A stretch of DNA of 64,000 bases from Eimeria praecox (lineage: Eukaryota): contig OY986948.1 of assembly GCA_963920595.1 (NCBI GenBank), positions 4,712,001 through 4,776,000 on the forward strand. The letters are read 5' to 3'. Positions 25,370-53,389 of this stretch are shown piece after piece. The position numbers and the translations under genes were made by a program. Every line of letters begins with the position of its first letter. Within the stretch, counting starts at the first letter, position 1. The notes under the pieces were generated by a model, which worked only from the letters and a program-made list of their open reading frames with translations, ran no database searches and was not told the DNA's origin.

Positions 25370-25900
25370 GGAAATGCCCCAGATATGGAGCGTATGGGTA
25401 CTGCGGCTGTGAATATCTGTAGCGTCCAGAAACGACGAAAGCAATCGACATCACCTGCCAGAATGCCGCGATGACGCGCTGAGAGGCCCATCTGAGCCTT
25501 TTGCACTAGACAAGGCAGCATAATTCGAGATTACAGGAGCAGAGAAAAAGCTAAGGAACTTTAGAAGCAGAACTGAGCAGCGCCAACAGGGAAGCGAACA
25601 CAACGATCAGGGAAGCGGGTGAGCTACCACGCAACGTATGGGGGAGCACTGAGGCAAAAAGAAGTGACAACCGTACCTGCATGTCCCCTTCGAGTTAACT
25701 CTGTGCTGGTCCAAGCTAGTATTAATGGCCAAGATATGTCATTACTGGTTGGGACTGGCTGAGAAATGGGTCTGATAGGGGAAGCTAGGGGGAGGAGGTG
25801 CAACATACAAGCCTATTCGTTGGCGTAGTCTCTGCCATTAGGCTCTGCGGACGGCAAACAGAAATCGAAAGTCAAATTATGATGTACAATGTGAGGTCTA
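25370..25900 (+). mobile_element. Decayed LTR-retrotransposon gag zinc knuckle and aspartic protease relic
   Basis: From 25375 CPRYGAYGYCGCEY fits CX2CX4HX4C with C->Y, H->Y, C->Y changes. From 25703 VLVQASINGQDMSLLVGTG*EMGLI fits the retropepsin ING..LVDTGA motif, with ADG at ~25847. In-frame stops present. Confidence 0.6.
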
Positions 25901-26548
25901 CTCAGAAATGGTTCATATCACAATGAGGTGGGGCCTCTGTGCTGGACCAGTTCACCACGATAATCAAAGGCATAGTGCGGGTGTCTCAGTGAAGGGCGTG
26001 CATGCTGCCTCCTCGTCTCACTGTTGAGGTAAGTGTAGAGGAAAACGATGAGAGGGTGCGCCTCTTAGCATTGCTAACAGCATTCGCATGCTTTACGGTA
26101 AGAGAAGTGGAATCAGGACCCTAAGGAGAAAGAAGCTAGGAGACTCCTACTCATTGCAGAGCCGCCGCGGGAATCGATGGAGACATGCATGCACTGGAGT
26201 GCAACCATTGGAAGCGCCTGCTTTGGGGATGAGTAGCTCACAAAGGGGGGGTTGGGGCCTAAGCTTTTAAGAAAATGAGTTGTCTGTAGCGGTTCCTGGA
26301 TAGCCATAATTAGGCGGAGGGACTGTATATTGCAGGAAACAAAAGCTATTCCAGAATAGCTGGTATGCAGGCACTTATCAGCGTGATTTTGCACGTAACA
26401 GAGCAGCCGACACCGAAGGCTCGCAAAAAATCCATATTAAAGCTGCATTGCATAAGCTGGAAGTGGTTTCCGCTGAATGGGGACAAGCACATATATGCTC
26501 CCTAAAAATTGCTTCGCACAAGCGATCATCGAATGCGCACCACGGCTA

Positions 26549-28755
26549 TCAATCTCCTGGCCATTTAAAGCGATATTCTAGTTTTCTCTGAACCGTGCGA
26601 ATCGGTACAAGTGTGCCCAGGATCTCAGTCTCCTCCAGTTGCTGCTTTTTTAATGACGCGGCTGGCGCGAGCTCGAAAGCAGTTTGGTGATTCATGATGT
26701 AAGCGAAACAGTTATCTCCAGAAAGAACAGCGTAGGAACCTACCCAGTGAGCGGCGAATCTTGCGCCGCTCGTTCCCTTGCGAGCCTCAAATGGCATACG
26801 AATTCACTAGGGCCCAACCGCCTAGGTTGGAAGCTACCCCGAGTGTCACTGGTCATAGTTTCTTACCTGGAGTTCTTGTGCCTTCTTCATGCAGTCCTGC
26901 GCTGCTGCAAGCTGCGCATGGAAATTCCAGAGACAGCGGGCTAACGTGGTTGGCTTGGGGCAGCAGGCTCTAACGCCGGCTCAGACAATGGTATTTCGGT
27001 GTAGACCAGGGACGCCAGGAAGCAACGAGTGGAAGAGTGCACTGGTGCATTACAAGCCCTTTCCGCACAGAAAAGCAATAACAGCTACTCTGACCAACGC
27101 TTGTGGGCTGAAAGTCGCAAGGGCTGCACAAGCGTGCAGTCGGTGCATTCAGGGTGGCCGTCTGTCTTCGGCTGGTTCATGATGGTTATGCTATGGACAA
27201 TATTAACCCGCTTCATCTATCCCTGTCAGTAATAACGATATTCAGAAAACCACGGAGTTTCCATACATGAGTAATAGATTACGGGGCCACTAAATCTCCG
27301 TAGCTGAACGCTAGCACGGGATGGAACCGGTTGACTACGCTCAGTCTATCAACAACAACGTAGGCTAAAGTGCAAACACTAACTGCTCATAAGCCTGGTA
27401 TGAAGTCCATTGACGTCTTTTCCGTGTAATGGGAACAGAAGATGTTACAAAGGCCCAGAATTGAGAGTGCTCTGCTGCTTCTGCTCCTGCTGTTCGGGGC
27501 AGCGGACGGCATATCCCTCTGTTCCTAGACCACAAAAGAGCATCAGCATCCCCTCAACGGCTGTATTAACACTTCAATGACCAGCTAAAACATGGTCGCG
27601 CACTTTGTGCAAAATGCCTGTGCGAAGCTAATCTGGAACGTATAGCCGGCGGATCTGGCGGAGCGCACGCTTCGTCGGGTACCACAAGAGATGGCTGCCA
27701 ACGCAGCAGCGCTTAACCTCTCTTGTTGCTGACCGCGCCGAGGGGCCTAACCGGGTGAATAGGTAGCATATAAGAAGAACACAGTTTAAGAAGGACACCG
27801 GAGTCGCGGGTATGCGCAGTTGCAGAAGACAGTGCCTGACGGGTAGGGCGGCGGGAGAGTGCATCAAAGACCATGCAGGTGCTGCCCTTGATCTGATCGA
27901 CTGTGAACCCGTATTGCGTAAGTTGGCACAGCCACTTAGCACTCCCATGATTTTCGTTGTTTTGAAGCTTCTTCTTCAGGCGTGGCGTGTTAGGGATTGA
28001 TTGTTTGTTTGAACAACAAAATACTTGCCATACAGGTAATATTGATACTTTTATAACTGTCAACCAGACCGCGCAGAGCTCCTTTCCGCTTGCCGAATAC
28101 TTCTGCTCGCTATCCGCGAAAATATGTGAGTTGTGGGCAACTATATGGTGCTTCTTCGGGTCAGTGGCCCACTGAGAGAGCATCACCCCAACTGCTGCGT
28201 CACCGACATCAGTCGTTAGGGAGAAAGGATTGCCGGAATGGGGAGGGTTGAGTACTGCAGACGGTCTCAGGTGCCCGGTGAGGCTTCAGGCTGCTTCTTC
28301 TTCGGGTTATGTCGAAATTAGTTGTTCGTCTTCCTTTCGCGCATCCTTTAGATGGGTGGTGAAGCGACAAGATCCAGCAATGACGTCGTGATAGTAATGC
28401 AATGAGGAGGAACTTCTAAACGCTCATATGAGCCTAGAGATGCAACGGCCACGCCCGGATGGCCTTTATCGTCACTGGTTCTGGCTCGAGGAGTGATGCA
28501 AAGACATAAAATTCCAAAACCCTAATTGTTTAGATGGAAAAAAACATCAATGCATGCTCGAACCACTTCCCCTCGCTTGACAGTTTCAGAGCAAGCTGCA
28601 GGTGCTGCAAATGCTCCAGCACGCTCCAGCGCAAGACAGGCGCATTATCCTTGCACACTAATTCCTACCCCTCATTGTTTGGCTCGACGAAGTCGTTATT
28701 GACCTGTCGCTGCAGTGCGGCAGGCGTACTCGCTAGCGCAAAGGTCATACAGGTA
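26549..28755 (-). mobile_element. Decayed Ty3/gypsy chromovirus pol: RT (3' part), RNase H, integrase, chromodomain
   Basis: RT: MTFALASTPAALQRQVN..LVCKDN..EHLQHL (MPFGLxNAPAxFQR and YLDD equivalents, 28750-28590). RNase H: PFSLTTDVGDAAVGVMLSQ..SEQKYSASGKELCAV..DALSRRP. IN: TSMDFIPGL, QPKTDGHPECTDCTL..ACNAPVHSST. FAAHWVGSY is the GPF/Y module. EILG..LEYRFKWPG is the chromodomain. RT-RH-IN order is gypsy-type. Many stops and frameshifts. Confidence 0.88.
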
Positions 28756-28756
28756 T

Positions 28757-31700
28757 TGGGTCTTCGGTCACGTCGGAGAGCATTTCATACCAGTTCAATC
28801 TTTACCATCTTTAAAGTGCCTAACCGATCGCCCTGTTGTAAACTTTTCGGATGCAAATTGCACAGCCTTTCCTCTTCTGTCCCTGCCAGGTCTGGCACAC
28901 GGTCAACTAGTAGGCCTGCCACTCATAGGGATGTTTTCGTGCCGATCTGCTCAAACGATAGGAAAGATTGAAGGCGCAATCACCTACTCAGCAAAACGCA
29001 TACTTTATGGTTCTTCCCTGCAGGCGTCCGGAAAATGAGCAGCACCCGTTCGAACTCTGAGTTCTTGGGCCTACCGCATCGCACCCACCTCGTCCATACG
29101 CCCTTGAAACGGCACCTACGTAAGCTGCCAAATCCTTCCTTCTGCGTGCCTATAGTCATCTGCACACCCACATTAAACGCAAACACTTCTACCTCACGTC
29201 TTGGGCAGTGAAAGATAGGAGACCATTGTCTCGCTGTATGGACAACGAATGCCTTCAGCTAACAAGACACAAGCGTTATGCGTACTTCGGTAGTTTCCGC
29301 TTCGTAAAGCCCGTGCATGCTTGCAGTTAGAGTCACTTTGGACTCGGTGCCAACAAAGGCGCGCCCTCTCGCAGCAGCCTGCGCTGTGCCCATGAGGATA
29401 CGCCGAAGACTTTACATCGTTTTCGGGATCTTCCAGCACTTATGTTACTTTGCCGTCGCCTCCCAACCCAACGTCAGCGCTGACGAAGGAAGGCTGCGTG
29501 GCTGGGAAATCCCAGCAGGAAAATCTGAGGCTTTCGCACACCCCGATACCTACGCAAGCAGCTCCCTTTCTGCGAGCGCTCCAAGCGTTACCCGACACGT
29601 TGAGCCCACCCAAAATAAAGTGGCACAAGTGCGCACACGGCAGCCCGGAATCACCTAGAGACGCCTTTTCATGCTGTTTTGATTCCTGATAGCCCAGTGT
29701 CGGGAGGTTCTTTGGGTCTGGAAAAGGTGCTGCCACTGTAAAATCCCCTGCATCACCGTTTTGCTTGCTCTCTGCATATCACGCTCAGGCTCTGCTGGCT
29801 TCCCTTAAACTGTCGCAAGATCTTTTCAACGCCACTATCGCACTTGCTGTACCGCCTCAGGAACAACCGAACGAAGTCAAAGCCACAGAAGAACACACCA
29901 CATCTTGCCGGGCATTAGGCATCTGGGTGTGCATCATTGTTGCCCTTTCGATGGCCTCACTCTGCATTTACGGGGTTTGCGTACTAATCCGGAGGTGCAA
30001 GGCCTGCTCGACAAGCAACCAAACGCTTTCTGCCACCTTCTCTCCACGCCATCCGGCAGAACCTGTATCGCTACCCCCATTACCACTGCATGCACTTGGA
30101 CGCCCAAACTTCAAAGACATACAAGACAGCAAGAACACCTCCAGCGCAGCTCATGGCAGTTTCCGTCATCACGGGCCTCCCCTAAAGCATCCTGGGCCAA
30201 TTCGAGAGCAGATCAGACTCCCCCCTCTCCCAGCCACAATGCAGTCCAAAGGCAACCTCGAACTCCCAGCTTCATTGCCAGTCGCTCACCTTTGTCTTCA
30301 GCAGTATGCAGGCCAACAGAAATGCGCAGAGTCCCCTTTGCCTCCTCCTCTTGGCTTGTCAAACACCCCCAAAAAACACCGTCTTGGGGATTTTTGGAGG
30401 CGCCCCTGACTCGAGCTGCCAAAGGCACGAACATCTACCTTTTTCCTAGTCAGGATAATGCTACTTACGACACAGCTAGACCCTTCCTTCTTCGGAGCTC
30501 TTGAAGAAACTGAATGCGGAAAGGCAGCTATGTAGCAGGTCCGCCCGTAGTTTAGAAAGCCAGTGGCTGCGCGGCCTCCACCCAAAGTCACATCGAATCC
30601 CGCAGACCATACAGGGTCTAGCCACCCTTCCTCAGTCGCCCAGAACTCAAAGTCTGCTGGCAGAAACAACGCCCCGCTCCCAGTGTAACCTGCGAAGGGG
30701 AAAAGCCAACCATGGTTAGGTTCAGTGGACAGTGCAGCAAGCAGGGTCTAGAGCGACCTGCTGCTGGCCTCCACATTCAAATACCTTCAAAAACAACACA
30801 GCGTGAAGGTGTTGAGCTTCCATCCTACATTGAGGAGCAAGGGCAGCAGCTCATCTAGGTTAAAGCTCGTTAGCAAACGCAAGCCGTGCTTGTGCCCCAC
30901 CACGCTGGCGAAACAGGAGCGCAGTTCGTCCTAAGCTGCTGGCGAGCTAGAGCTGCCACAGTGGGCTCTGTTTAATCCCCCGACCCTCTAAAAGTGATGC
31001 TCCGCAAAGGTGAGCTAGCTTGAAATGTATGTGCCAGACTTCGGCTTCCTGCTGCCAAGATGCGCACCGCCTCTCTACAATGAAGGTGACCCCGGCAAGA
31101 CCCAGGGTGGAAATTCAGCACTGTTGCCAAACCAAGGTCGACGGACCCTCACGCTTTTTTTGGCAAAACCTTCCCTTTCAGCATTTTACCTAGACGGATG
31201 CTGGTTCAACAATTTTGTACTTTTCCACGAACCCGATGCACACCATCGGCCCGATGCCCGCACGTGCGCAAGCCGGTAGTCACGTGTATCTCACATTATT
31301 ATATCTTCTAGTTAGGGATGAATCTTTCAAATCCACGTTTTCAGCTCGCCTCCAGATGGGCTTCAGAGCCGGGAGCTGCCTGAACCTGCGCGTGTCTGGG
31401 CTTGGCCTTCCACAGCACAACGCCCAACGCAAACTCGATGAACTCGTCAGGACGGACCAAAACGAACAATTCGTTGTGGGATATGCGATGCGGACAATTT
31501 AAAAAGAACGACTAGCTCCTATTTCCACTGGGGGGTGCAGAACAGGCTTTTCGCATTGCTCATCGGCAGCAGAACCATGATGGGGCCCTGCCGTCGAGTT
31601 ATGCTCAAACCGCAGCTGTCGACCGGACCACTGCGGCGGTCACCGTTACTCTCTGTCACCACAACTACACACAACCATAATACCAGACATTTTGTCTTCG

Positions 31701-31800
31701 ACTTTTCCAATGAATTGTTTTTTTTATTTGAACTCGCAAGCTTCTGATTATCTTGAACGCTTTGGTTTCTTTGCACTCTAGACAAATCTAAATCTGAATG
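28757..31800 (-). mobile_element. Repeat-unit content (unit 1, repeated x8): decayed integrase, USP/C19 peptidase and Ty1/copia-type RT N-terminal fragment
   Basis: IN-like: CCR*AMRK, ASRSF*IVRIA, LFVLVRPDEFIEFALGVVL (~31575-31410). USP Cys box TGFLNYGRTCYIAAF (30564-30520), QNGDAGDF (~29765-29740), His-box-like KHARALRSGNYRS (~29322-29285). Copia RT: DACREE, then in internal units FTTGRSVRHFKDDKDGTDMKCSYRVVAQG (e.g. ~31923-31837). Confidence 0.7.
29765..30409 (+). CDS. Possible single-pass membrane protein ORF (214 codons, no ATG start) present in all 8 units; may be only an antisense open frame
   Basis: Hydrophobic stretch GIWVCIIVALSMASLCIYGVCVLI followed by RRCK and a Pro-rich tail. Starts at TTG and lies antisense to the USP relic. 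No family recognised. Confidence 0.25.
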   Translation: MLSAYHAQALLASLKLSQDLFNATIALAVPPQEQPNEVKATEEHTTSCRALGIWVCIIVALSMASLCIYGVCVLIRRCKACSTSNQTLSATFSPRHPAEPVSLPPLPLHALGRPNFKDIQDSKNTSSAAHGSFRHHGPPLKHPGPIREQIRLPPLPATMQSKGNLELPASLPVAHLCLQQYAGQQKCAESPLPPPLGLSNTPKKHRLGDFWRRP

Positions 31801-34800
31801 TGCGAGCATTGGGTCTTCGGTCACGTTGGATTATTTCCCTGCGCAACCACACGGTATGAGCATTTCATATCTGTTCCATCCTTATCATCTTTAAAGTGCC
31901 TAACCGATCGCCCTGTTGTAAACTTTTCGGATGCAAATTGCACAGCCTTTCCTCTTCTGTCCCTGCCAGGTCTGGCACACGGTCAACTAGTAGGCCTGCC
32001 ACTCATAGGGATGTTTTCGTGCCGATCTGCTCAAACGATAGGAAAGATTGAAGGCGCAATCACCTACTCAGCAAAACGCATACTTTATGGTTCTTCCCTG
32101 CAGGCGTCCGGAAAATGAGCAGCACCCGTTCGAACTCTGAGTTCTTGGGCCTACCGCATCGGACCCACCTCGTCCATACGCCCTTGAAACGGCACCTACG
32201 TAAGCTGCCAAATCCTTCCTTCTGCGTACCTATAGTCACCTGCACACCCACATTAAACGCAAACACTTCTACCTCACGTCTTGGGCAGTGAAAGATAGGA
32301 GACCATTGTCTCGCTGTATGGACAACGAATGCCTTCAGCTAACAAGGCACAAGCGTTATGCGTACTTCGGTAGTTTCCGCTTCGTAAAGCCCGTGCATGC
32401 TTGCAGTTAGAGTCACTTTGGACTCGGTGCCAACAAAGGCGCGCCCTCTCGCAGCAGCCTGCGCTGTGCCCATGAGGATACGCCGAAGACTTTACATCGT
32501 TTTCGGGATCTTCCAGCACTTATGTTACTTTGCCGTCGCCTCCCAACCCAACGTCAGCGCTGACGAAGGAAGGCTGCGTGGCTGGGAAATCCCAGCAGGA
32601 AAATCTGAGGCTTTCGCACACCCCGATACCTACGCAAGCAGCTCCCTTTCTGCGAGCGCTCCAAGCGTTACCCGACACGTTGAGCCCGCCCAAAATAAAG
32701 TGGCACAAGTGCGCACACGGCAGCCCGAAATCACCTAGAGACGCCTTTTCATGCTGTTTTGATTCCTGATAGCCCAGTGTCGGGAGGTTCTTTGGGACTG
32801 GAAAAGGTGCTGCCGCTGTAAAATCCCCTGCATCACCGTTTTGCTTGCTCTCTGCATATCACGCTCAGGCTCTGCTGGCTTCCCTTAAACTGTCGCAAGA
32901 TCTTTTCAACGCCACTATCGCACTTGCTGTACCGCCTCAGGAACAACCGAACGAAGTCAAAGCCACAGAAGAACACACCACATCTTGCCGGGCATTAGGC
33001 ATCTGGGTGTGCATCATTGTTGCCCTTTCGATGGCCTCACTCTGCATTTACGGGGTTTGCGTACTAATCCGGAGGTGCAAGGCCTGCTCGACAAGCAACC
33101 AAACGCTTTCTGCCACCTTCTCTCCACGCCATCCGGCAGAACCTGTATCGCTACCCCCATTACCACTGCATGCACTTGGACGCCCAAACTTCAAAGACAT
33201 ACAAGACAGCAAGAACACCTCCAGCGCAGCTCATGGCAGTTTCCGTCATCACGGGCCTCCCCTCAAGCATCCTGGGCCAATTCGAGAGCAGATCAGACTC
33301 CCCCCTCTCCCAGCCACAATGCAGTCCAAAGGCAACCTCGAACTCCCAGCTTCATTGCCAATCGCTCACCTTTGTCTTCAGCAGTATGCAGGCCAACAGA
33401 AATGCGCAGAGTCCCCTTTGCCTCCTCCTCTTGGCTTGTCAAACACCCCCAAAAAACACCGTCTTGGGGATTTTTGGAGGCGCCCCTGACTCGAGCTGCC
33501 AAAGGCACGAACATCTACCTTTTTCCTAGTCAGGATAATGCTACTTACGACACAGCTAGACCCTTCCTTCTTCGGAGCTCTTGAAGAAACTGAATGCGGA
33601 AAGGCAGCTATGTAGCAGGTCCGCCCGTAGTTTAGAAAGCCAGTGGCTGCGCGGCCTCCACCCAAAGTCACATCGAATCCCGCAGACCATACAGGGTCTA
33701 GCCACCCTTCCTCAGTCGCCCAGAACTCAAAGTCTGCTGGCAGAAACAACGCCCCGCTCCCAGTGTAACCTGCGAAGGGGAAAAGCCAACCATGGTTAGG
33801 TTCAGTGGACAGTGCAGCAAGCAGGGTCTAGAGCGACCTGCTGCTGGCCTCCACATTCAAATACCTTCAAAAACAACACAGCGTGAAGGTGTTGAGCTTC
33901 CATCCTACATTGAGGAGCAAGGGCAGCAGCTCATCTAGGTTAAAGCTCGTTAGCAAACGCAAGCCGTGCTTGTGCCCCACCACGCTGGCGAAACAGGAGC
34001 GCAGTTCGTCCTAAGCTGCTGGCGAGCTAGAGCTGCCACAGTGGGCTCTGTTTAATCCCCCGACCCTCTAAAAGTGATGCTCCGCAAAGGTGAGCTAGCT
34101 TGAAATGTATGTGCCAGACTTCGGCTTCCTGCTGCCAAGATGCGCACCGCCTCTCTACAATGAAGGTGACCCCGGCAAGACCCAGGGTGGAAATTCAGCA
34201 CTGTTGCCAAACCAAGGTCGACGGACCCTCACGCTTTTTTTGGCAAAACCTTCCCTTTCAGCATTTTACCTAGACGGATGCTGGTTCAACAATTTTGTAC
34301 TTTTCCACGAACCCAATGCACACCATCGGCCCGATGCCCGCACGTGCGCAAGCCGGTAGTCACGTGTATCTCACATTATTATATCTTCTAGTTAGGGATG
34401 AATCTTTCAAATCCACGTTTTCAGCTCGCCTCCAGATGGGCTTCAGAGCCGGGAGCTGCCTGAACCTGCGCGTGTCTGGGCTTGGCCTTCCACAGCACAA
34501 CGCCCAACGCAAACTCGATGAACTCGTCAGGACGGACCAAAACGAACAATTCGTTGTGGGATATGCGATGCGGACAATTTAAAAAGAACGACTAGCTCCT
34601 ATTTCCACTGGGGGGTGCAGAACAGGCTTTTCGCATTGCTCATCGGCAGCAGAACCATGATGGGGCCCTGCCGTCGAGTTATGCTCAAACCGCAGCTGTC
34701 GACCGGACCACTGCGGCGGTCACCGTTACTCTCTGTCACCACAACTACACACAACCATAATACCAGACATTTTGTCTTCGACTTTTCCAATGAATTGCTT

Positions 34801-37800
34801 TTTTTATTTGAACTCGCAAGCTTCTGATTATCTTGAACGCTTTGGTTTCTTTGCACTCTAGACAAATCTAAATCTGAATGTGCGAGCATTGGGTCTTCGG
34901 TCACGTTGGATTATTTCCCTGCGCAACCACACGGTATGAGCATTTCATATCTGTTCCATCCTTATCATCTTTAAAGTGCCTAACCGATCGCCCTGTTGTA
35001 AACTTTTCGGATGCAAATTGCACAGCCTTTCCTCTTCTGTCCCTGCCAGGTCTGGCACACGGTCAACTAGTAGGCCTGCCACTCATAGGGATGTTTTCGT
35101 GCCGATCTGCTCAAACGATAGGAAAGATTGAAGGCGCAATCACCTACTCAGCAAAACGCATACTTTATGGTTCTTCCCTGCAGGCGTCCGGAAAATGAGC
35201 AGCACCCGTTCGAACTCTGAGTTCTTGGGCCTACCGCATCGCACCCACCTCGTCCATACGCCCTTGAAACGGCACCTACGTAAGCTGCCAAATCCTTCCT
35301 TCTGCGTACCTATAGTCACCTGCACACCCACATTAAACGCAAACACTTCTACCTCACGTCTTGGGCAGTGAAAGATAGGAGACCATTGTCTCGCTGTATG
35401 GACAACGAATGCCTTCAGCTAACAAGGCACAAGCGTTATGCGTACTTCGGTAGTTTCCGCTTCGTAAAGCCCGTGCATGCTTGCAGTTAGAGTCACTTTG
35501 GACTCGGTGCCAACAAAGGCGCGCCCTCTCGCAGCAGCCTGCGCTGTGCCCATGAGGATACGCCGAAGACTTTACATCGTTTTCGGGATCTTCCAGCACT
35601 TATGTTACTTTGCCGTCGCCTCCCAACCCAACGTCAGCGCTGACGAAGGAAGGCTGCGTGGCTGGGAAATCCCAGCAGGAAAATCTGAGGCTTTCGCACA
35701 CCCCGATACCTACGCAAGCAGCTCCCTTTCTGCGAGCGCTCCAAGCGTTACCCGACACGTTGAGCCCGCCCAAAATAAAGTGGCACAAGTGCGCACACGG
35801 CAGCCCGAAATCACCTAGAGACGCCTTTTCATGCTGTTTTGATTCCTGATAGCCCAGTGTCGGGAGGTTCTTTGGGACTGGAAAAGGTGCTGCCGCTGTA
35901 AAATCCCCTGCATCACCGTTTTGCTTGCTCTCTGCATATCACGCTCAGGCTCTGCTGGCTTCCCTTAAACTGTCGCAAGATCTTTTCAACGCCACTATCG
36001 CACTTGCTGTACCGCCTCAGGAACAACCGAACGAAGTCAAAGCCACAGAAGAACACACCACATCTTGCCGGGCATTAGGCATCTGGGTGTGCATCATTGT
36101 TGCCCTTTCGATGGCCTCACTCTGCATTTACGGGGTTTGCGTACTAATCCGGAGGTGCAAGGCCTGCTCGACAAGCAACCAAACGCTTTCTGCCACCTTC
36201 TCTCCACGCCATCCGGCAGAACCTGTATCGCTACCCCCATTACCACTGCATGCACTTGGACGCCCAAACTTCAAAGACATACAAGACAGCAAGAACACCT
36301 CCAGCGCAGCTCATGGCAGTTTCCGTCATCACGGGCCTCCCCTCAAGCATCCTGGGCCAATTCGAGAGCAGATCAGACTCCCCCCTCTCCCAGCCACAAT
36401 GCAGTCCAAAGGCAACCTCGAACTCCCAGCTTCATTGCCAATCGCTCACCTTTGTCTTCAGCAGTATGCAGGCCAACAGAAATGCGCAGAGTCCCCTTTG
36501 CCTCCTCCTCTTGGCTTGTCAAACACCCCCAAAAAACACCGTCTTGGGGATTTTTGGAGGCGCCCCTGACTCGAGCTGCCAAAGGCACGAACATCTACCT
36601 TTTTCCTAGTCAGGATAATGCTACTTACGACACAGCTAGACCCTTCCTTCTTCGGAGCTCTTGAAGAAACTGAATGCGGAAAGGCAGCTATGTAGCAGGT
36701 CCGCCCGTAGTTTAGAAAGCCAGTGGCTGCGCGGCCTCCACCCAAAGCCACATCGAATCCCGCAGACCATACAGGGTCTAGCCACCCTTCCTCAGTCGCC
36801 CAGAACTCAAAGTCTGCTGGCAGAAACAACGCCCCGCTCCCAGTGTAACCTGCGAAGGGGAAAAGCCAACCATGGTTAGGTTCAGTGGACAGTGCAGCAA
36901 GCAGGGTCTAGAGCGACCTGCTGCTGGCCTCCACATTCAAATACCTTCAAAAACAACACAGCGTGAAGGTGTTGAGCTTCCATCCTACATTGAGGAGCAA
37001 GGGCAGCAGCTCATCTAGGTTAAAGCTCGTTAGCAAACGCAAGCCGTGCTTGTGCCCCACCACGCTGGCGAAACAGGAGCGCAGTTCGTCCTAAGCTGCT
37101 GGCGAGCTAGAGCTGCCACAGTGGGCTCTGTTTAATCCCCCGACCCTCTAAAAGTGATGCTCCGCAAAGGTGAGCTAGCTTGAAATGTATGTGCCAGACT
37201 TCGGCTTCCTGCTGCCAAGATGCGCACCGCCTCTCTACAATGAAGGTGACCCCGGCAAGACCCAGGGTGGAAATTCAGCACTGTTGCCAAACCAAGGTCG
37301 ACGGACCCTCACGCTTTTTTTGGCAAAACCTTCCCTTTCAGCATTTTACCTAGACGGATGCTGGTTCAACAATTTTGTACTTTTCCACGAACCCAATGCA
37401 CACCATCGGCCCGATGCCCGCACGTGCGCAAGCCGGTAGTCACGTGTATCTCACATTATTATATCTTCTAGTTAGGGATGAATCTTTCAAATCCACGTTT
37501 TCAGCTCGCCTCCAGATGGGCTTCAGAGCCGGGAGCTGCCTGAACCTGCGCGTGTCTGGGCTTGGCCTTCCACAGCACAACGCCCAACGCAAACTCGATG
37601 AACTCGTCAGGACGGACCAAAACGAACAATTCGTTGTGGGATATGCGATGCGGACAATTTAAAAAGAACGACTAGCTCCTATTTCCACTGGGGGGTGCAG
37701 AACAGGCTTTTCGCATTGCTCATCGGCAGCAGAACCATGATGGGGCCCTGCCGTCGAGTTATGCTCAAACCGCAGCTGTCGACCGGACCACTGCGGCGGT

Positions 37801-40800
37801 CACCGTTACTCTCTGTCACCACAACTACACACAACCATAATACCAGACATTTTGTCTTCGACTTTTCCAATGAATTGTTTTTTTTATTTGAACTCGCAAG
37901 CTTCTGATTATCTTGAACGCTTTGGTTTCTTTGCACTCTAGGCAAATCTAAATCTGAATGTGCGAGCATTGGGTCTTCGGTCACGTTGGATTATTTCCCT
38001 GCGCAACCACACGGTATGAGCATTTCATATCTGTTCCATCCTTATCATCTTTAAAGTGCCTAACCGATCGCCCTGTTGTAAACTTTTCGGATGCAAATTG
38101 CACAGCCTTTCCTCTTCTGTCCCTGCCAGGTCTGGCACACGGTCAACTAGTAGGCCTGCCACTCATAGGGATGTTTTCGTGCCGATCTGCTCAAACGATA
38201 GGAAAGATTGAAGGCGCAATCACCTACTCAGCAAAACGCATACTTTATGGTTCTTCCCTGCAGGCGTCCGGAAAATGAGCAGCACCCGTTCGAACTCTGA
38301 GTTCTTGGGCCTACCGCATCGGACCCACCTCGTCCATACGCCCTTGAAACGGCACCTACGTAAGCTGCCAAATCCTTCCTTCTGCGTACCTATAGTCACC
38401 TGCACACCCACATTAAACGCAAACACTTCTACCTCACGTCTTGGGCAGTGAAAGATAGGAGACCATTGTCTCGCTGTATGGACAACGAATGCCTTCAGCT
38501 AACAAGGCACAAGCGTTATGCGTACTTCGGTAGTTTCCGCTTCGTAAAGCCCGTGCATGCTTGCAGTTAGAGTCACTTTGGACTCGGTGCCAACAAAGGC
38601 GCGCCCTCTCGCAGCAGCCTGCGCTGTGCCCATGAGGATACGCCGAAGACTTTACATCGTTTTCGGGATCTTCCAGCACTTATGTTACTTTGCCGTCGCC
38701 TCCCAACCCAACGTCAGCGCTGACGAAGGAAGGCTGCGTGGCTGGGAAATCCCAGCAGGAAAATCTGAGGCTTTCGCACACCCCGATACCTACGCAAGCA
38801 GCTCCCTTTCTGCGAGCGCTCCAAGCGTTACCCGACACGTTGAGCCCGCCCAAAATAAAGTGGCACAAGTGCGCACACGGCAGCCCGAAATCACCTAGAG
38901 ACGCCTTTTCATGCTGTTTTGATTCCTGATAGCCCAGTGTCGGGAGGTTCTTTGGGACTGGAAAAGGTGCTGCCGCTGTAAAATCCCCTGCATCACCGTT
39001 TTGCTTGCTCTCTGCATATCACGCTCAGGCTCTGCTGGCTTCCCTTAAACTGTCGCAAGATCTTTTCAACGCCACTATCGCACTTGCTGTACCGCCTCAG
39101 GAACAACCGAACGAAGTCAAAGCCACAGAAGAACACACCACATCTTGCCGGGCATTAGGCATCTGGGTGTGCATCATTGTTGCCCTTTCGATGGCCTCAC
39201 TCTGCATTTACGGGGTTTGCGTACTAATCCGGAGGTGCAAGGCCTGCTCGACAAGCAACCAAACGCTTTCTGCCACCTTCTCTCCACGCCATCCGGCAGA
39301 ACCTGTATCGCTACCCCCATTACCACTGCATGCACTTGGACGCCCAAACTTCAAAGACATACAAGACAGCAAGAACACCTCCAGCGCAGCTCATGGCAGT
39401 TTCCGTCATCACGGGCCTCCCCTCAAGCATCCTGGGCCAATTCGAGAGCAGATCAGACTCCCCCCTCTCCCAGCCACAATGCAGTCCAAAGGCAACCTCG
39501 AACTCCCAGCTTCATTGCCAATCGCTCACCTTTGTCTTCAGCAGTATGCAGGCCAACAGAAATGCGCAGAGTCCCCTTTGCCTCCTCCTCTTGGCTTGTC
39601 AAACACCCCCAAAAAACACCGTCTTGGGGATTTTTGGAGGCGCCCCTGACTCGAGCTGCCAAAGGCACGAACATCTACCTTTTTCCTAGTCAGGATAATG
39701 CTACTTACGACACAGCTAGACCCTTCCTTCTTCGGAGCTCTTGAAGAAACTGAATGCGGAAAGGCAGCTATGTAGCAGGTCCGCCCGTAGTTTAGAAAGC
39801 CAGTGGCTGCGCGGCCTCCACCCAAAGCCACATCGAATCCCGCAGACCATACAGGGTCTAGCCACCCTTCCTCAGTCGCCCAGAACTCAAAGTCTGCTGG
39901 CAGAAACAACGCCCCGCTCCCAGTGTAACCTGCGAAGGGGAAAAGCCAACCATGGTTAGGTTCAGTGGACAGTGCAGCAAGCAGGGTCTAGAGCGACCTG
40001 CTGCTGGCCTCCACATTCAAATACCTTCAAAAACAACACAGCGTGAAGGTGTTGAGCTTCCATCCTACATTGAGGAGCAAGGGCAGCAGCTCATCTAGGT
40101 TAAAGCTCGTTAGCAAACGCAAGCCGTGCTTGTGCCCCACCACGCTGGCGAAACAGGAGCGCAGTTCGTCCTAAGCTGCTGGCGAGCTAGAGCTGCCACA
40201 GTGGGCTCTGTTTAATCCCCCGACCCTCTAAAAGTGATGCTCCGCAAAGGTGAGCTAGCTTGAAATGTATGTGCCAGACTTCGGCTTCCTGCTGCCAAGA
40301 TGCGCACCGCCTCTCTACAATGAAGGTGACCCCGGCAAGACCCAGGGTGGAAATTCAGCACTGTTGCCAAACCAAGGTCGACGGACCCTCACGCTTTTTT
40401 TGGCAAAACCTTCCCTTTCAGCATTTTACCTAGACGGATGCTGGTTCAACAATTTTGTACTTTTCCACGAACCCAATGCACACCATCGGCCCGATGCCCG
40501 CACGTGCGCAAGCCGGTAGTCACGTGTATCTCACATTATTATATCTTCTAGTTAGGGATGAATCTTTCAAATCCACGTTTTCAGCTCGCCTCCAGATGGG
40601 CTTCAGAGCCGGGAGCTGCCTGAACCTGCGCGTGTCTGGGCTTGGCCTTCCACAGCACAACGCCCAACGCAAACTCGATGAACTCGTCAGGACGGACCAA
40701 AACGAACAATTCGTTGTGGGATATGCGATGCGGACAATTTAAAAAGAACGACTAGCTCCTATTTCCACTGGGGGGTGCAGAACAGGCTTTTCGCATTGCT

Positions 40801-41064
40801 CATCGGCAGCAGAACCATGATGGGGCCCTGCCGTCGAGTTATGCTCAAACCGCAGCTGTCGACCGGACCACTGCGGCGGTCACCGTTACTCTCTGTCACC
40901 ACAACTACACACAACCATAATACCAGACATTTTGTCTTCGACTTTTCCAATGAATTGCTTTTTTATTTGAACTCGCAAGCTTCTGATTATCTTGAACGCT
41001 TTGGTTTCTTTGCACTCTAGACAAATCTAAATCTGAATGTGCGAGCATTGGGTCTTCGGTCACG

Positions 41065-41106
41065 TTGGATTATTTCCCTGCGCAATTGGATTATTTCCCT
41101 GCGCAA
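41065..41106. repeat. 21-bp tandem duplication private to the unit 4/5 junction
   Basis: ttggattatttccctgcgcaa is present twice here and once at the other internal junctions. With a 1-bp deletion in the T-run near 40960 it explains the 3100-bp spacing. Confidence 0.92.
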
Positions 41107-44100
41107 CCACACGGTATGAGCATTTCATATCTGTTCCATCCTTATCATCTTTAAAGTGCCTAACCGATCGCCCTGTTGTAAACTTTTCGGATGCAAATTG
41201 CACAGCCTTTCCTCTTCTGTCCCTGCCAGGTCTGGCACACGGTCAACTAGTAGGCCTGCCACTCATAGGGATGTTTTCGTGCCGATCTGCTCAAACGATA
41301 GGAAAGATTGAAGGCGCAATCACCTACTCAGCAAAACGCATACTTTATGGTTCTTCCCTGCAGGCGTCCGGAAAATGAGCAGCACCCGTTCGAACTCTGA
41401 GTTCTTGGGCCTACCGCATCGGACCCACCTCGTCCATACGCCCTTGAAACGGCACCTACGTAAGCTGCCAAATCCTTCCTTCTGCGTACCTATAGTCACC
41501 TGCACACCCACATTAAACGCAAACACTTCTACCTCACGTCTTGGGCAGTGAAAGATAGGAGACCATTGTCTCGCTGTATGGACAACGAATGCCTTCAGCT
41601 AACAAGGCACAAGCGTTATGCGTACTTCGGTAGTTTCCGCTTCGTAAAGCCCGTGCATGCTTGCAGTTAGAGTCACTTTGGACTCGGTGCCAACAAAGGC
41701 GCGCCCTCTCGCAGCAGCCTGCGCTGTGCCCATGAGGATACGCCGAAGACTTTACATCGTTTTCGGGATCTTCCAGCACTTATGTTACTTTGCCGTCGCC
41801 TCCCAACCCAACGTCAGCGCTGACGAAGGAAGGCTGCGTGGCTGGGAAATCCCAGCAGGAAAATCTGAGGCTTTCGCACACCCCGATACCTACGCAAGCA
41901 GCTCCCTTTCTGCGAGCGCTCCAAGCGTTACCCGACACGTTGAGCCCGCCCAAAATAAAGTGGCACAAGTGCGCACACGGCAGCCCGAAATCACCTAGAG
42001 ACGCCTTTTCATGCTGTTTTGATTCCTGATAGCCCAGTGTCGGGAGGTTCTTTGGGACTGGAAAAGGTGCTGCCGCTGTAAAATCCCCTGCATCACCGTT
42101 TTGCTTGCTCTCTGCATATCACGCTCAGGCTCTGCTGGCTTCCCTTAAACTGTCGCAAGATCTTTTCAACGCCACTATCGCACTTGCTGTACCGCCTCAG
42201 GAACAACCGAACGAAGTCAAAGCCACAGAAGAACACACCACATCTTGCCGGGCATTAGGCATCTGGGTGTGCATCATTGTTGCCCTTTCGATGGCCTCAC
42301 TCTGCATTTACGGGGTTTGCGTACTAATCCGGAGGTGCAAGGCCTGCTCGACAAGCAACCAAACGCTTTCTGCCACCTTCTCTCCACGCCATCCGGCAGA
42401 ACCTGTATCGCTACCCCCATTACCACTGCATGCACTTGGACGCCCAAACTTCAAAGACATACAAGACAGCAAGAACACCTCCAGCGCAGCTCATGGCAGT
42501 TTCCGTCATCACGGGCCTCCCCTCAAGCATCCTGGGCCAATTCGAGAGCAGATCAGACTCCCCCCTCTCCCAGCCACAATGCAGTCCAAAGGCAACTTCG
42601 AACTCCCAGCTTCATTGCCAATCGCTCACCTTTGTCTTCAGCAGTATGCAGGCCAACAGAAATGCGCAGAGTCCCCTTTGCCTCCTCCTCTTGGCTTGTC
42701 AAACACCCCCAAAAAACACCGTCTTGGGGATTTTTGGAGGCGCCCCTGACTCGAGCTGCCAAAGGCACGAACATCTACCTTTTTCCTAGTCAGGATAATG
42801 CTACTTACGACACAGCTAGACCCTTCCTTCTTCGGAGCTCTTGAAGAAACTGAATGCGGAAAGGCAGCTATGTAGCAGGTCCGCCCGTAGTTTAGAAAGC
42901 CAGTGGCTGCGCGGCCTCCACCCAAAGCCACATCGAATCCCGCAGACCATACAGGGTCTAGCCACCCTTCCTCAGTCGCCCAGAACTCAAAGTCTGCTGG
43001 CAGAAACAACGCCCCGCTCCCAGTGTAACCTGCGAAGGGGAAAAGCCAACCATGGTTAGGTTCAGTGGACAGTGCAGCAAGCAGGGTCTAGAGCGACCTG
43101 CTGCTGGCCTCCACATTCAAATACCTTCAAAAACAACACAGCGTGAAGGTGTTGAGCTTCCATCCTACATTGAGGAGCAAGGGCAGCAGCTCATCTAGGT
43201 TAAAGCTCGTTAGCAAACGCAAGCCGTGCTTGTGCCCCACCACGCTGGCGAAACAGGAGCGCAGTTCGTCCTAAGCTGCTGGCGAGCTAGAGCTGCCACA
43301 GTGGGCTCTGTTTAATCCCCCGACCCTCTAAAAGTGATGCTCCGCAAAGGTGAGCTAGCTTGAAATGTATGTGCCAGACTTCGGCTTCCTGCTGCCAAGA
43401 TGCGCACCGCCTCTCTACAATGAAGGTGACCCCGGCAAGACCCAGGGTGGAAATTCAGCACTGTTGCCAAACCAAGGTCGACGGACCCTCACGCTTTTTT
43501 TGGCAAAACCTTCCCTTTCAGCATTTTACCTAGACGGATGCTGGTTCAACAATTCCGTACTTTTCCACGAACCCGATGCACACCATCGGCCCGATGCCCG
43601 CACGTGCGCAAGCCGGTAGTCACGTGTATCTCACATTATTATATCTTCTAGTTAGGGATGAATCTTTCAAATCCACGTTTTCAGCTCGCCTCCAGATGGG
43701 CTTCAGAGCCGGGAGCTGCCTGAACCTGCGCGTGTCTGGGCTTGGCCTTCCACAGCACAACGCCCAACGCAAACTCGATGAACTCGTCAGGACGGACCAA
43801 AACGAACAATTCGTTGTGGGATATGCGATGCGGACAATTTAAAAAGAACGACTAGCTCCTATTTCCACTGGGGGGTGCAGAACAGGCTTTTCGCATTGCT
43901 CATCGGCAGCAGAACCATGATGGGGCCCTGCCGTCGAGTTATGCTCAAACCGCAGCTGTCGACCGGACCACTGCGGCGGTCACCGTTACTCTCTGTCACC
44001 ACAACTACACACAACCATAATACCAGACATTTTGTCTTCGACTTTTCCAATGAATTGTTTTTTTTATTTGAACTCGCAAGCTTCTGATTATCTTGAACGC

Positions 44101-47100
44101 TTTGGTTTCTTTGCACTCTAGACAAATCTAAATCTGAATGTGCGAGCATTGGGTCTTCGGTCACGTTGGATTATTTCCCTGCGCAACCACACGGTATGAG
44201 CATTTCATATCTGTTCCATCCTTATCATCTTTAAAGTGCCTAACCGATCGCCCTGTTGTAAACTTTTCGGATGCAAATTGCACAGCCTTTCCTCTTCTGT
44301 CCCTGCCAGGTCTGGCACACGGTCAACTAGTAGGCCTGCCACTCATAGGGATGTTTTCGTGCCGATCTGCTCAAACGATAGGAAAGATTGAAGGCGCAAT
44401 CACCTACTCAGCAAAACGCATACTTTATGGTTCTTCCCTGCAGGCGTCCGGAAAATGAGCAGCACCCGTTCGAACTCTGAGTTCTTGGGCCTACCGCATC
44501 GGACCCACCTCGTCCATACGCCCTTGAAACGGCACCTACGTAAGCTGCCAAATCCTTCCTTCTGCGTACCTATAGTCACCTGCACACCCACATTAAACGC
44601 AAACACTTCTACCTCACGTCTTGGGCAGTGAAAGATAGGAGACCATTGTCTCGCTGTATGGACAACGAATGCCTTCAGCTAACAAGGCACAAGCGTTATG
44701 CGTACTTCGGTAGTTTCCGCTTCGTAAAGCCCGTGCATGCTTGCAGTTAGAGTCACTTTGGACTCGGTGCCAACAAAGGCGCGCCCTCTCGCAGCAGCCT
44801 GCGCTGTGCCCATGAGGATACGCCGAAGACTTTACATCGTTTTCGGGATCTTCCAGCACTTATGTTACTTTGCCGTCGCCTCCCAACCCAACGTCAGCGC
44901 TGACGAAGGAAGGCTGCGTGGCTGGGAAATCCCAGCAGGAAAATCTGAGGCTTTCGCACACCCCGATACCTACGCAAGCAGCTCCCTTTCTGCGAGCGCT
45001 CCAAGCGTTACCCGACACGTTGAGCCCGCCCAAAATAAAGTGGCACAAGTGCGCACACGGCAGCCCGAAATCACCTAGAGACGCCTTTTCATGCTGTTTT
45101 GATTCCTGATAGCCCAGTGTCGGGAGGTTCTTTGGGACTGGAAAAGGTGCTGCCGCTGTAAAATCCCCTGCATCACCGTTTTGCTTGCTCTCTGCATATC
45201 ACGCTCAGGCTCTGCTGGCTTCCCTTAAACTGTCGCAAGATCTTTTCAACGCCACTATCGCACTTGCTGTACCGCCTCAGGAACAACCGAACGAAGTCAA
45301 AGCCACAGAAGAACACACCACATCTTGCCGGGCATTAGGCATCTGGGTGTGCATCATTGTTGCCCTTTCGATGGCCTCACTCTGCATTTACGGGGTTTGC
45401 GTACTAATCCGGAGGTGCAAGGCCTGCTCGATAAGCAACCAAACGCTTTCTGCCACCTTCTCTCCACGCCATCCGGCAGAACCTGTATCGCTACCCCCAT
45501 TACCACTGCATGCACTTGGACGCCCAAACTTCAAAGACATACAAGACAGCAAGAACACCTCCAGCGCAGCTCATGGCAGTTTCCGTCATCACGGGCCTCC
45601 CCTCAAGCATCCTGGGCCAATTCGAGAGCAGATCAGACTCCCCCCTCTCCCAGCCACAATGCAGTCCAAAGGCAACTTCGAACTCCCAGCTTCATTGCCA
45701 ATCGCTCACCTTTGTCTTCAGCAGTATGCAGGCCAACAGAAATGCGCAGAGTCCCCTTTGCCTCCTCCTCTTGGCTTGTCAAACACCCCCAAAAAACACC
45801 GTCTTGGGGATTTTTGGAGGCGCCCCTGACTCGAGCTGCCAAAGGCACGAACATCTACCTTTTTCCTAGTCAGGATAATGCTACTTACGACACAGCTAGA
45901 CCCTTCCTTCTTCGGAGCTCTTGAAGAAACTGAATGCGGAAAGGCAGCTATGTAGCAGGTCCGCCCGTAGTTTAGAAAGCCAGTGGCTGCGCGGCCTCCA
46001 CCCAAAGCCACATCGAATCCCGCAGACCATACAGGGTCTAGCCACCCTTCCTCAGTCGCCCAGAACTCAAAGTCTGCTGGCAGAAACAACGCCCCGCTCC
46101 CAGTGTAACCTGCGAAGGGGAAAAGCCAACCATGGTTAGGTTCAGTGGACAGTGCAGCAAGCAGGGTCTAGAGCGACCTGCTGCTGGCCTCCACATTCAA
46201 ATACCTTCAAAAACAACACAGCGTGAAGGTGTTGAGCTTCCATCCTACATTGAGGAGCAAGGGCAGCAGCTCATCTAGGTTAAAGCTCGTTAGCAAACGC
46301 AAGCCGTGCTTGTGCCCCACCACGCTGGCGAAACAGGAGCGCAGTTCGTCCTAAGCTGCTGGCGAGCTAGAGCTGCCACAGTGGGCTCTGTTTAATCCCC
46401 CGACCCTCTAAAAGTGATGCTCCGCAAAGGTGAGCTAGCTTGAAATGTATGTGCCAGACTTCGGCTTCCTGCTGCCAAGATGCGCACCGCCTCTCTACAA
46501 TGAAGGTGACCCCGGCAAGACCCAGGGTGGAAATTCAGCACTGTTGCCAAACCAAGGTCGACGGACCCTCACGCTTTTTTTGGCAAAACCTTCCCTTTCA
46601 GCATTTTACCTAGACGGATGCTGGTTCAACAATTCCGTACTTTTCCACGAACCCGATGCACACCATCGGCCCGATGCCCGCACGTGCGCAAGCCGGTAGT
46701 CACGTGTATCTCACATTATTATATCTTCTAGTTAGGGATGAATCTTTCAAATCCACGTTTTCAGCTCGCCTCCAGATGGGCTTCAGAGCCGGGAGCTGCC
46801 TGAACCTGCGCGTGTCTGGGCTTGGCCTTCCACAGCACAACGCCCAACGCAAACTCGATGAACTCGTCAGGACGGACCAAAACGAACAATTCGTTGTGGG
46901 ATATGCGATGCGGACAATTTAAAAAGAACGACTAGCTCCTATTTCCACTGGGGGGTGCAGAACAGGCTTTTCGCATTGCTCATCGGCAGCAGAACCATGA
47001 TGGGGCCCTGCCGTCGAGTTATGCTCAAACCGCAGCTGTCGACCGGACCACTGCGGCGGTCACCGTTACTCTCTGTCACCACAACTACACACAACCATAA

Positions 47101-50100
47101 TACCAGACATTTTGTCTTCGACTTTTCCAATGAATTGTTTTTTTTATTTGAACTCGCAAGCTTCTGATTATCTTGAACGCTTTGGTTTCTTTGCACTCTA
47201 GACAAATCTAAATCTGAATGTGCGAGCATTGGGTCTTCGGTCACGTTGGATTATTTCCCTGCGCAACCACACGGTATGAGCATTTCATATCTGTTCCATC
47301 CTTATCATCTTTAAAGTGCCTAACCGATCGCCCTGTTGTAAACTTTTCGGATGCAAATTGCACAGCCTTTCCTCTTCTGTCCCTGCCAGGTCTGGCACAC
47401 GGTCAACTAGTAGGCCTGCCACTCATAGGGATGTTTTCGTGCCGATCTGCTCAAACGATAGGAAAGATTGAAGGCGCAATCACCTACTCAGCAAAACGCA
47501 TACTTTATGGTTCTTCCCTGCAGGCGTCCGGAAAATGAGCAGCACCCGTTCGAACTCTGAGTTCTTGGGCCTACCGCATCGGACCCACCTCGTCCATACG
47601 CCCTTGAAACGGCACCTACGTAAGCTGCCAAATCCTTCCTTCTGCGTACCTATAGTCACCTGCACACCCACATTAAACGCAAACACTTCTACCTCACGTC
47701 TTGGGCAGTGAAAGATAGGAGACCATTGTCTCGCTGTATGGACAACGAATGCCTTCAGCTAACAAGGCACAAGCGTTATGCGTACTTCGGTAGTTTCCGC
47801 TTCGTAAAGCCCGTGCATGCTTGCAGTTAGAGTCACTTTGGACTCGGTGCCAACAAAGGCGCGCCCTCTCGCAGCAGCCTGCGCTGTGCCCATGAGGATA
47901 CGCCGAAGACTTTACATCGTTTTCGGGATCTTCCAGCACTTATGTTACTTTGCCGTCGCCTCCCAACCCAACGTCAGCGCTGACGAAGGAAGGCTGCGTG
48001 GGTGGGAAATCCCAGCAGGAAAATCTGAGGCTTTCGCACACCCCGATACCTACGCAAGCAGCTCCCTTTCTGCGAGCGCTCCAAGCGTTACCCGACACGT
48101 TGAGCCCGCCCAAAATAAAGTGGCACAAGTGCGCACACGGCAGCCCGAAATCACCTAGAGACGCCTTTTCATGCTGTTTTGATTCCTGATAGCCCAGTGT
48201 CGGGAGGTTCTTTGGGACTGGAAAAGGTGCTGCCGCTGTAAAATCCCCTGCATCACCGTTTTGCTTGCTCTCTGCATATCACGCTCAGGCTCTGCTGGCT
48301 TCCCTTAAACTGTCGCAAGATCTTTTCAACGCCACTATCGCACTTGCTGTACCGCCTCAGGAACAACCGAACGAAGTCAAAGCCACAGAAGAACACACCA
48401 CATCTTGCCGGGCATTAGGCATCTGGGTGTGCATCATTGTTGCCCTTTCGATGGCCTCACTCTGCATTTACGGGGTTTGCGTACTAATCCGGAGGTGCAA
48501 GGCCTGCTCGACAAGCAACCAAACGCTTTCTGCCACCTTCTCTCCACGCCATCCGGCAGAACCTGTATCGCTACCCCCATTACCACTGCATGCACTTGGA
48601 CGCCCAAACTTCAAAGACATACAAGACAGCAAGAACACCTCCAGCGCAGCTCGTGGCAGTTTCCGTCATCACGGGCCTCCCCTCAAGCATCCTGGGCCAA
48701 TTCGAGAGCAGATCAGACTCCCCCCTCTCCCAGCCACAATGCAGTCCAAAGGCAACTTCGAACTCCCAGCTTCATTGCCAATCGCTCACCTTTGTCTTCA
48801 GCAGTATGCAGGCCAACAGAAATGCGCAGAGTCCCCTTTGCCTCCTCCTCTTGGCTTGTCAAACACCCCCAAAAAACACCGTCTTGGGGATTTTTGGAGG
48901 CGCCCCTGACTCGAGCTGCCAAAGGCACGAACATCTACCTTTTTCCTAGTCAGGATAATGCTACTTACGACACAGCTAGACCCTTCCTTCTTCGGAGCTC
49001 TTGAAGAAACTGAATGCGGAAAGGCAGCTATGTAGCAGGTCCGCCCGTAGTTTAGAAAGCCAGTGGCTGCGCGGCCTCCACCCAAAGCCACATCGAATCC
49101 CGCAGACCATACAGGGTCTAGCCACCCTTCCTCAGTCGCCCAGAACTCAAAGTCTGCTGGCAGAAACAACGCCCCGCTCCCAGTGTAACCTGCGAAGGGG
49201 AAAAGCCAACCATGGTTAGGTTCAGTGGACAGTGCAGCAAGCAGGGTCTAGAGCGACCTGCTGCTGGCCTCCACATTCAAATACCTTCAAAAACAACACA
49301 GCGTGAAGGTGTTGAGCTTCCATCCTACATTGAGGAGCAAGGGCAGCAGCTCATCTAGGTTAAAGCTCGTTAGCAAACGCAAGCCGTGCTTGTGCCCCAC
49401 CACGCTGGCGAAACAGGAGCGCAGTTCGTCCTAAGCTGCTGGCGAGCTAGAGCTGCCACAGTGGGCTCTGTTTAATCCCCCGACCCTCTAAAAGTGATGC
49501 TCCGCAAAGGTGAGCTAGCTTGAAATGTATGTGCCAGACTTCGGCTTCCTGCTGCCAAGATGCGCACCGCCTCTCTACAATGAAGGTGACCCCGGCAAGA
49601 CCCAGGGTGGAAATTCAGCACTGTTGCCAAACCAAGGTCGACGGACCCTCACGCTTTTTTTGGCAAAACCTTCCCTTTCAGCATTTTACCTAGACGGATG
49701 CTGGTTCAACAATTCCGTACTTTTCCACGAACCCGATGCACACCATCGGCCCGATGCCCGCACGTGCGCAAGCCGGTAGTCACGTGTATCTCACATTATT
49801 ATATCTTCTAGTTAGGGATGAATCTTTCAAATCCACGTTTTCAGCTCGCCTCCAGATGGGCTTCAGAGCCGGGAGCTGCCTGAACCTGCGCGTGTCTGGG
49901 CTTGGCCTTCCACAGCACAACGCCCAACGCAAACTCGATGAACTCGTCAGGACGGACCAAAACGAACAATTCGTTGTGGGATATGCGATGCGGACAATTT
50001 AAAAAGAACGACTAGCTCCTATTTCCACTGGGGGGTGCAGAACAGGCTTTTCGCATTGCTCATCGGCAGCAGAACCATGATGGGGCCCTGCCGTCGAGTT

Positions 50101-53100: not shown

Positions 53101-53389
53101 ATTTCCACTGGGGGGTGCAGAACAGGCTTTTCGCATTGCTCATCGGCAGCAGAACCATGATGGGGCCCTGCCGTCGAGTTATGCTCAAACCGCAGCTGTC
53201 GACCGGACCACTGCGGCGGTCACCGTTACTCTCTGTCACCACAACTACACACAACCATAATACCAGACATTTTGTCTTCGACTTTTCCAATGAATTGTTT
53301 TTTTTATTTGAACTCGCAAGCTTCTGATTATCTTGAACGCTTTGGTTTCTTTGCACTCTAGACAAATCTAAATCTGAATGTGCGAGCAT

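Follow-up and report, generated by a model that had tools for sequence, protein, structure and literature searches.

The window, which is the whole 64,000-nucleotide stretch of Eimeria praecox DNA that we analysed, holds eight copies of a 3080-bp unit of dead DNA in tandem. In our preferred reading, to which we give a probability of roughly 40%, this DNA was amplified by crossing-over between two bounding repeats, A and A', and it holds the relic of a compact USP domain brought by a mobile element. A compact USP-type deubiquitinase gene would have arrived on a mobile element and would have decayed amid other transposon relics. A and A' would then have mispaired, and unequal crossing-over would have led to a neutral tandem amplification that included the USP relic. 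By analogy with known protease passengers, the living passenger might have removed ubiquitin either from proteins of the element itself or from host factors for repair and silencing. The USP is compact and has transposon relics around it, which makes a mobile element its probable carrier. Compact USP domains were also found beside an Ulp1-like protease on two fetched transposon-like contigs. The features discussed below are collected in Table 1.

Table 1. Features of the array, its unit and its left flank (positions in the window)
Feature	Position	Strand	Remarks
Tandem array	28778..53389	.	8 copies of the 3080-bp unit, one period of 3100
Repeat A	28757..29070	-	also at 31800-32150 and in every unit; junction version carries a copia-RT-start-like word
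A', old diverged copy of repeat A	53390..53661	-	bounds the array; likely crossover substrate
Likely decayed compact USP/C19-like domain	29580..30576	-	unit 1, repeated in each unit
USP Cys-box-like motif GFLNYGRTCYIAA	30505..30573	-	Cys codon 30537-30535
IVALKRS	29818..29838	-	in register with the USP palm LKRF box; 8 copies
Expected His-box region	29585..29775	-	two alternative weak candidates, neither with a catalytic His
Integrase-like interval of the earlier note	30620..31810	-	decayed DNA in which no profile stands out clearly from chance
Decayed Ty3/gypsy pol (RT C-half, RNase H, integrase)	26690..28748	-	abuts the array, outside the unit

The eight copies are mutually 99.3-99.7% identical by self-BLAST, and anchors space them by six steps of 3080 bp and one of 3100 bp, which bears out the tandem unit described in the earlier note. 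The array is real and no assembly artefact, because contig depth over the unit is raised in run X1 (370 versus 51-55 in the flanks) and in run X3 (about 3900 versus 507-522), and in run X2 a contig joint steps back by 3080. The depth in X1 and X3, which belong to two studies, lies about 7-fold above the flanks; copy number cannot be read from it exactly, and the window may itself come from one of the runs. In run X1 the depth profile of the unit is flat, and thus no second copy at 80% identity or above is seen there, nor is there one in X3; older copies lie out of reach of this threshold. The left flank, unlike the unit, draws many diverged contigs.

Variant columns of the array are common to neighbouring units, which is the pattern expected from stepwise unequal crossing-over. 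A and A' flank the unit as direct repeats. They share 74.8% identity over 226 bp; about 60 bp are near-identical and the diverged rest is 66-75% identical. Their DNA likeness scores 67.8 versus 4.7±4.7. Unequal crossing-over between A and A' was very probably the mechanism that built the array. The differences between the two repeats are spread evenly over the codon positions (21/87, 26/86 and 21/87), with no excess in the third position. A and A' thus diverged by neutral decay, with no selection acting on the frame compared. The two repeats may represent old LTRs; inspection by eye revealed neither a primer site nor a target-site duplication around them.

The earlier note described the copy as dead, and it is: stops interrupt all three minus frames, with 9, 14 and 15 of them in the minus frames of 29551-30600. 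The unit would make no enzyme today. The amplification is local and most likely neutral. Rfam gave no match at E≤1 in 26000-35000, a tRNA search found none, and two plus-strand open frames in the unit had no Pfam match. The DNA of the unit was also unmatched in five eukaryote-contaminated genomes, an uninformative set. Besides the gypsy relic, a split cyclase gene was noted in the window.

Standard searches of the unit were blank. Pfam returned no family at E≤10 on the three minus frames, so the UCH, rve and RVT_2 similarity that would be expected from the earlier note did not appear. One frame read across two units had no match in the PDB, and a search of 1.84 billion protein representatives with one frame per segment gave no match at E≤0.001. 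In both cases the query included the frame with the USP reading and the RT-like word, and it covered the integrase-like part in one frame. A word-based homolog search was blank as well, but this is a weak blank, since the same method missed even the clear gypsy RNase H.

We therefore describe the unit mainly by profiles built from natural relatives, which were collected by motif scans, and by aligners tolerant of frameshifts and neutral decay. The USP profile was made of giant-virus USPs (57, then 66 sequences), and three members sampled from it are recognised as UCH at E values no worse than 1e-45. The copia profiles covered the integrase and RT-RNase H, and the gypsy profile covered pol. The motif names QQDAxEF, LKRF, GHY, MPFGL and KARLVA were checked against fetched sequences. 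The gypsy relic in the left flank served as a positive control for frameshift-aware scoring and the control worked (126 bits versus 21±1.5; forward score 140 bits); the same relic is found by Pfam as RT_RNaseH_2 at E 4e-12 and by HMMER at E 1.6e-20. Many profiles and settings were tried, and all p-values are uncorrected for this multiplicity. Shuffles are too lenient for the local DNA: at 53661-55200 even decoys beat them. We also ran decoy profiles on real tiles, where 1 of 1188 trials reached 11.7 bits or more (14.3 bits) and 8 of 1188 reached 6.3.

The USP-like interval spans about 330 codons and leaves no room for sizeable introns. It opens with the Cys box, for which the USP consensus is G-x-x-N-x-G-N-T-C-[YF]; GFLNYGRTCY of the unit reads as such a box. 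It is present with its Cys codon in 8/8 copies, and the intact codon reported earlier is thereby confirmed. The box alone beats 300/300 shuffles and 46/46 real tiles. HMMER gives it a P of 0.044 and hhalign a probability of 2.7% (E 0.017), and beyond the box plain HMMER and hhalign detect nothing of a USP.

Frameshift-aware scoring of the whole domain gave a USP forward score of 12.0 bits, which none of 300 shuffles reached and which was the best of 162 real tiles (the others lie at -2.1±3.1, with a maximum of 6.4). Under the same whole-domain test, no score above 0.9 bits was obtained with the gypsy or copia profiles or with any of 10 decoy or reversed ones. The USP block chain reached 49.7 versus 27.8±3.7. 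Its strongest block after the Cys box is IVALKRS, which contributes 11.3 bits and lies in the same frame as the Cys box. By the Viterbi method the whole USP gave 3/100, and with the Cys box removed the forward score gave 7/200. One 'decoy' that scored high on the unit proved to represent another USP family. An independent, shallow profile of animal and transposon USPs scored 1.8 bits, with 1/150 in full shuffles and 24/150 in anchored ones, and placed the interval outside its top 8 tiles.

The further boxes are a different matter. The earlier note had taken DAGDF for a QQDAxEF-like box and H..LRSGNY for a His box. In USPs the QQDAxEF box is expected about 60-90 residues after the Cys. The word DAGDF is there, at 29754-29740, but it lies 261 codons past the Cys as against about 84 columns in the profile, and it is therefore not the QQDAxEF box of such a domain. 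The best site of the QQDAxEF block is elsewhere and at chance level (19/100 and 42/100), and the block chain places this box at EDKGERL, at 30299 and in another frame. The second word, H..LRSGNY (CKHARALRSGNY, 29325-29290), is likewise present and is the best site of its block; its role as a His box is at chance level (37/100 and 44/100), and the whole-domain fit stops at 29580, before it is reached. The USP His box, GHY, carries the catalytic His and is followed by the catalytic Asp/Asn. The candidates within the expected region are AGDF at 29751 and a CH..SGNA stretch near 29590, the latter placed partly by eye, and the catalytic His is kept at no candidate site under any reading. In sum, the USP proposed in the earlier note has moderate support as a whole domain, but two of its three box assignments fail. 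Judging by the sequence, we consider it somewhat probable that 30576-29580 descends from a USP domain.

Could the unit be old junk, in which the Cys box and the later blocks are look-alikes picked from many motifs? The blank standard searches, hhalign included, would be expected if so. A motif reader in effect compares about a hundred tiles with hundreds of families, and the single decoy trial above 11.7 bits indicates that such a score can arise on real DNA. The same bases can moreover be read as a copia RNase H (1/40 and 9/40) and as a gypsy RT. On the other hand, when the Cys box is kept and the rest shuffled, the blocks past it are seen to keep the USP spacing (0/150 by block chain, 2/200 by forward score), and in the block chain 20 decoy or reversed profiles gave z values of at most 1.7 versus 5.9 for the USP. 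We regard a chance resemblance as doubtful, and a decayed USP relic remains our preferred explanation.

Next in plausibility is the setting proposed in the earlier note, a Ty1/copia element with a USP between integrase and RT in its pol, now dead and amplified. In Ty1/copia LTR retrotransposons rve comes before RVT_2. The unit resembles them in that a borderline match to an RT start follows the USP on the same strand, and differs in having no measurable integrase and no continuation into RT or RNase H. The RT-like word, CSYRVVA(QG), does exist, at the 7 internal junctions only; at the left end, within the copy that the earlier note had described, a gap of 27 bp removes it, and at the right end of the array a longer gap does. 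On A and A' jointly the copia RT N-part was the best of 21 profiles (1.9 bits, 1/300). The RT start was matched by 0/100 shuffles, yet 2/46 real tiles scored higher, and it gains about 3 bits over the null where the flank gypsy relic gains 140. A copia RT-RNase H following the junction was at chance level.

The integrase-like stretch yielded no measurable signal: 20/46 real tiles score as well, and the other tests gave 68/100, 19/100, 11/40, 24/60 and 68, 29 and 15/100. An integrase-core-like path ending at 31104 was obtained at 0/12, in one setting only. A second, weaker USP-like stretch lies upstream of A', at 54897-53962 (6.3 bits, top of 15 profiles), where all decoys were also raised. Such a stretch would fit two copies of one element. 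The two USP-like stretches, however, share no DNA likeness (28/60), although A and A' are alike.

No intact relative with integrase, USP and RT was found among the 1.84 billion representatives or the fetched copia and gypsy ORFs, and none of the 81 copia and 67 gypsy ORFs holds a USP. Since the copia profiles came from contigs with the canonical copia RT motif, they may overlook a distant alveolate lineage. Viral contigs scanned for copia motifs yielded a single phage match and otherwise two blank results. The word 'copia' is absent from the main text of three papers on Eimeria or apicomplexan repeats (PMC4199364, PMC9141347 and PMC11912684). Of the ancestor proposed in the earlier note, the USP part is moderately supported while the copia setting is weak, and we hold this origin of the unit to be unlikely. 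It is equally improbable that coccidians once hosted a Ty1/copia lineage whose pol ran integrase, USP, RT, and that the array and the stretch upstream of A' are its relics.

The USP interval could also be an older relic of a Ty3/gypsy RT-RNase H, a family that is known from Eimeria and adjoins the array. A Viterbi alignment of gypsy RT-RNase H to 30489-29504 scored 40.7 versus 21.9±3.3 (0/100), and two gypsy blocks find their best ungapped sites in PKKEGSSC and ERELLA, which lie roughly in register. The local forward score was 3.9 bits. Against this, the alignment needs about ten frameshifts, the block chain picks another register, and the whole-domain score is -9.7 bits (3/60). The unit has no DNA likeness to the flank gypsy relic, and a gypsy protease in the unit was at chance level. 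For the same bases gypsy RT-RNase H is the weaker reading than USP, and as an account of the interval we find it quite unlikely. That two unrelated families both beat shuffles on the same bases is a warning.

Two related candidates were rejected. One supposed that repeat A supplies the N-half that the flank gypsy RT lacks, as a continuation of the same age. On A' this gave 0/100 with one profile and 22/100 with a broader one, and it failed the joint test on A and A' (93/300 and 26/300), a failure that also counts against a gypsy origin of the interval. The other saw in the unit two older gypsy RT-RH repeats of 1.5 kb each, joined as a dimer, and was dropped too: no DNA likeness supported it, and 30620-31810 read as such a repeat gave 2-7/80 and chance level in other tests. 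Another candidate is a retrocopy, a processed pseudogene derived from a host USP gene that was never a standing part of an element. It would agree with a single, compact locus in retroelement-rich DNA where no element domain is firmly linked to the USP. But no parent was found among the 1.84 billion representatives, and the few cellular USPs tried fit the interval less well than compact viral-type ones do, which makes this origin very unlikely.

We then compared the unit with known systems. With the USP/peptidase C19 family (Pfam UCH, PF00443) of the compact giant-virus type it shares the Cys box G..N.G.TCY, the LKR box and the overall spacing over about 330 codons. It differs from PF00443 USPs in lacking a Pfam match and the catalytic His, in its stops and frameshifts, and in its weak QDAxEF and His boxes. 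In PMC9289625 an orchid gypsy element is said to carry an m6A demethylase domain. Planarian Burro gypsy elements carry ubiquitination-related domains, as described in sections of PMC6431247. Both are precedents for passenger domains in LTR polyproteins, and both are gypsy, not copia, elements. A USP in an LTR element is not named in the sections of PMC6431247 and PMC6338049 considered here.

Closer precedents come from DNA transposons. In sections of PMC2836005, C19 is described as fused to a Trichomonas transposase, and OTU and Ulp1 as occurring in Ginger1, Mutator and Helitron; the role proposed there for such protease passengers is in transposition, via ubiquitin-regulated DNA repair. Part of PMC11417382 describes UCH in Helitron-like HLE2 elements. 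Like these C19/UCH transposons, the unit has a ubiquitin-type cysteine protease in mobile DNA; they are intact and multi-copy, whereas the unit is dead and sits at a single locus. Because the Trichomonas transposase-C19 fusion and the HLE2 UCH have been described, a USP passenger in mobile DNA is already known. In the literature searched, which left supplements, Repbase and subscription papers outside its scope, there was no element with integrase, USP and RT, and no LTR element with a deubiquitinase.

Eimeria retroelements are described as chromoviruses or gypsy elements in parts of PMC4199364 and PMC9141347. The left flank, at 28748-26690, is likewise decayed gypsy pol, and gypsy RT-RNase H also aligns with part of the unit. 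Decay has gone much further in the unit than in the flank relic, and the unit is single-locus, in contrast to the many diverged contigs drawn by the flank.

The copia setting, if true, would bring one more retrotransposon superfamily to a phylum from which, in the portions of the literature cited, gypsy and LINE-like elements are reported. It would also provide an LTR polyprotein with a deubiquitinase, and a ubiquitin-based host defence against retroelements would become testable. The unit shows the limits of trust in the motif reading of decayed DNA. The array itself is a dead relic, and it probably represents a further instance of a USP borne by a transposon, here in a protist parasite.

The left end of the eight-copy tandem array is flanked by a decayed Ty3/gypsy pol relic, which starts abruptly where the array's left end falls and, judged by eye, carries a chromodomain-like end. 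Many diverged contigs map to the relic, and it therefore belongs to a dispersed family.

Features around and within the array
Feature	Position	Strand	Basis
Decayed Ty3/gypsy pol (RT C-half, RNase H, integrase)	26690-28748	-	Pfam and profile scores
Two overlapping stop-free frames, ~235 codons	29693-30409 and 29809-30504	+	ORF reading
Second, weaker USP-like stretch, upstream of A'	53962-54897	-	6.3 bits
Multi-exon adenylate/guanylate cyclase-like gene	~56180-63000	-	PF00211; extent by eye
Long open frames and Tsr1/BMS1 C-terminal fragment	360-2795 (+), 16646-20555 (-), 4701-5159 (-)		ORF reading and Pfam

Among the decoys, the unrelated profiles scored on real DNA tiles, a single trial reached at least 11.7 bits. 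It gave 14.3 bits at 25501-27040 (-) with a profile that, by its N-terminus, resembles a giant-virus major capsid protein. We counted this score as chance.

Each unit carries the two stop-free frames on the strand opposite its USP-like stretch, and a Pfam search of both gave no match. The second USP-like stretch lies beyond A', the old diverged copy of repeat A that bounds the array on the right, and opens with LTGVVVNWGSGCIM. Here the scores of all decoys were elevated together with that of the USP profile, and a gypsy protease-RT profile matched the region in one test and not in another. No DNA likeness between this stretch and the array unit was found.

Elsewhere in the window, Pfam supported the cyclase-like gene (PF00211, E 5e-27, 56181-56840) and the Tsr1/BMS1 fragment (PF04950, E 9e-7), and gave nothing above cut-off for long open frames of 811, 548, 404 and 327 aa.

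Many prokaryote species representatives (L236-L316) have contigs bearing long gypsy-type polyprotein ORFs (67 ORFs), and some carry split USP genes, apparently with introns. Both are eukaryotic contamination. Two further short contigs, L367 (G018:C43) and L368 (G006:C458), are likely eukaryotic and lie within bacterial genome bins. On both, a similar unknown region is followed by a compact USP domain and then an Ulp1-like protease, recognised by Pfam (C48) on one contig and by eye on the other. They look like a single family of DNA transposons.
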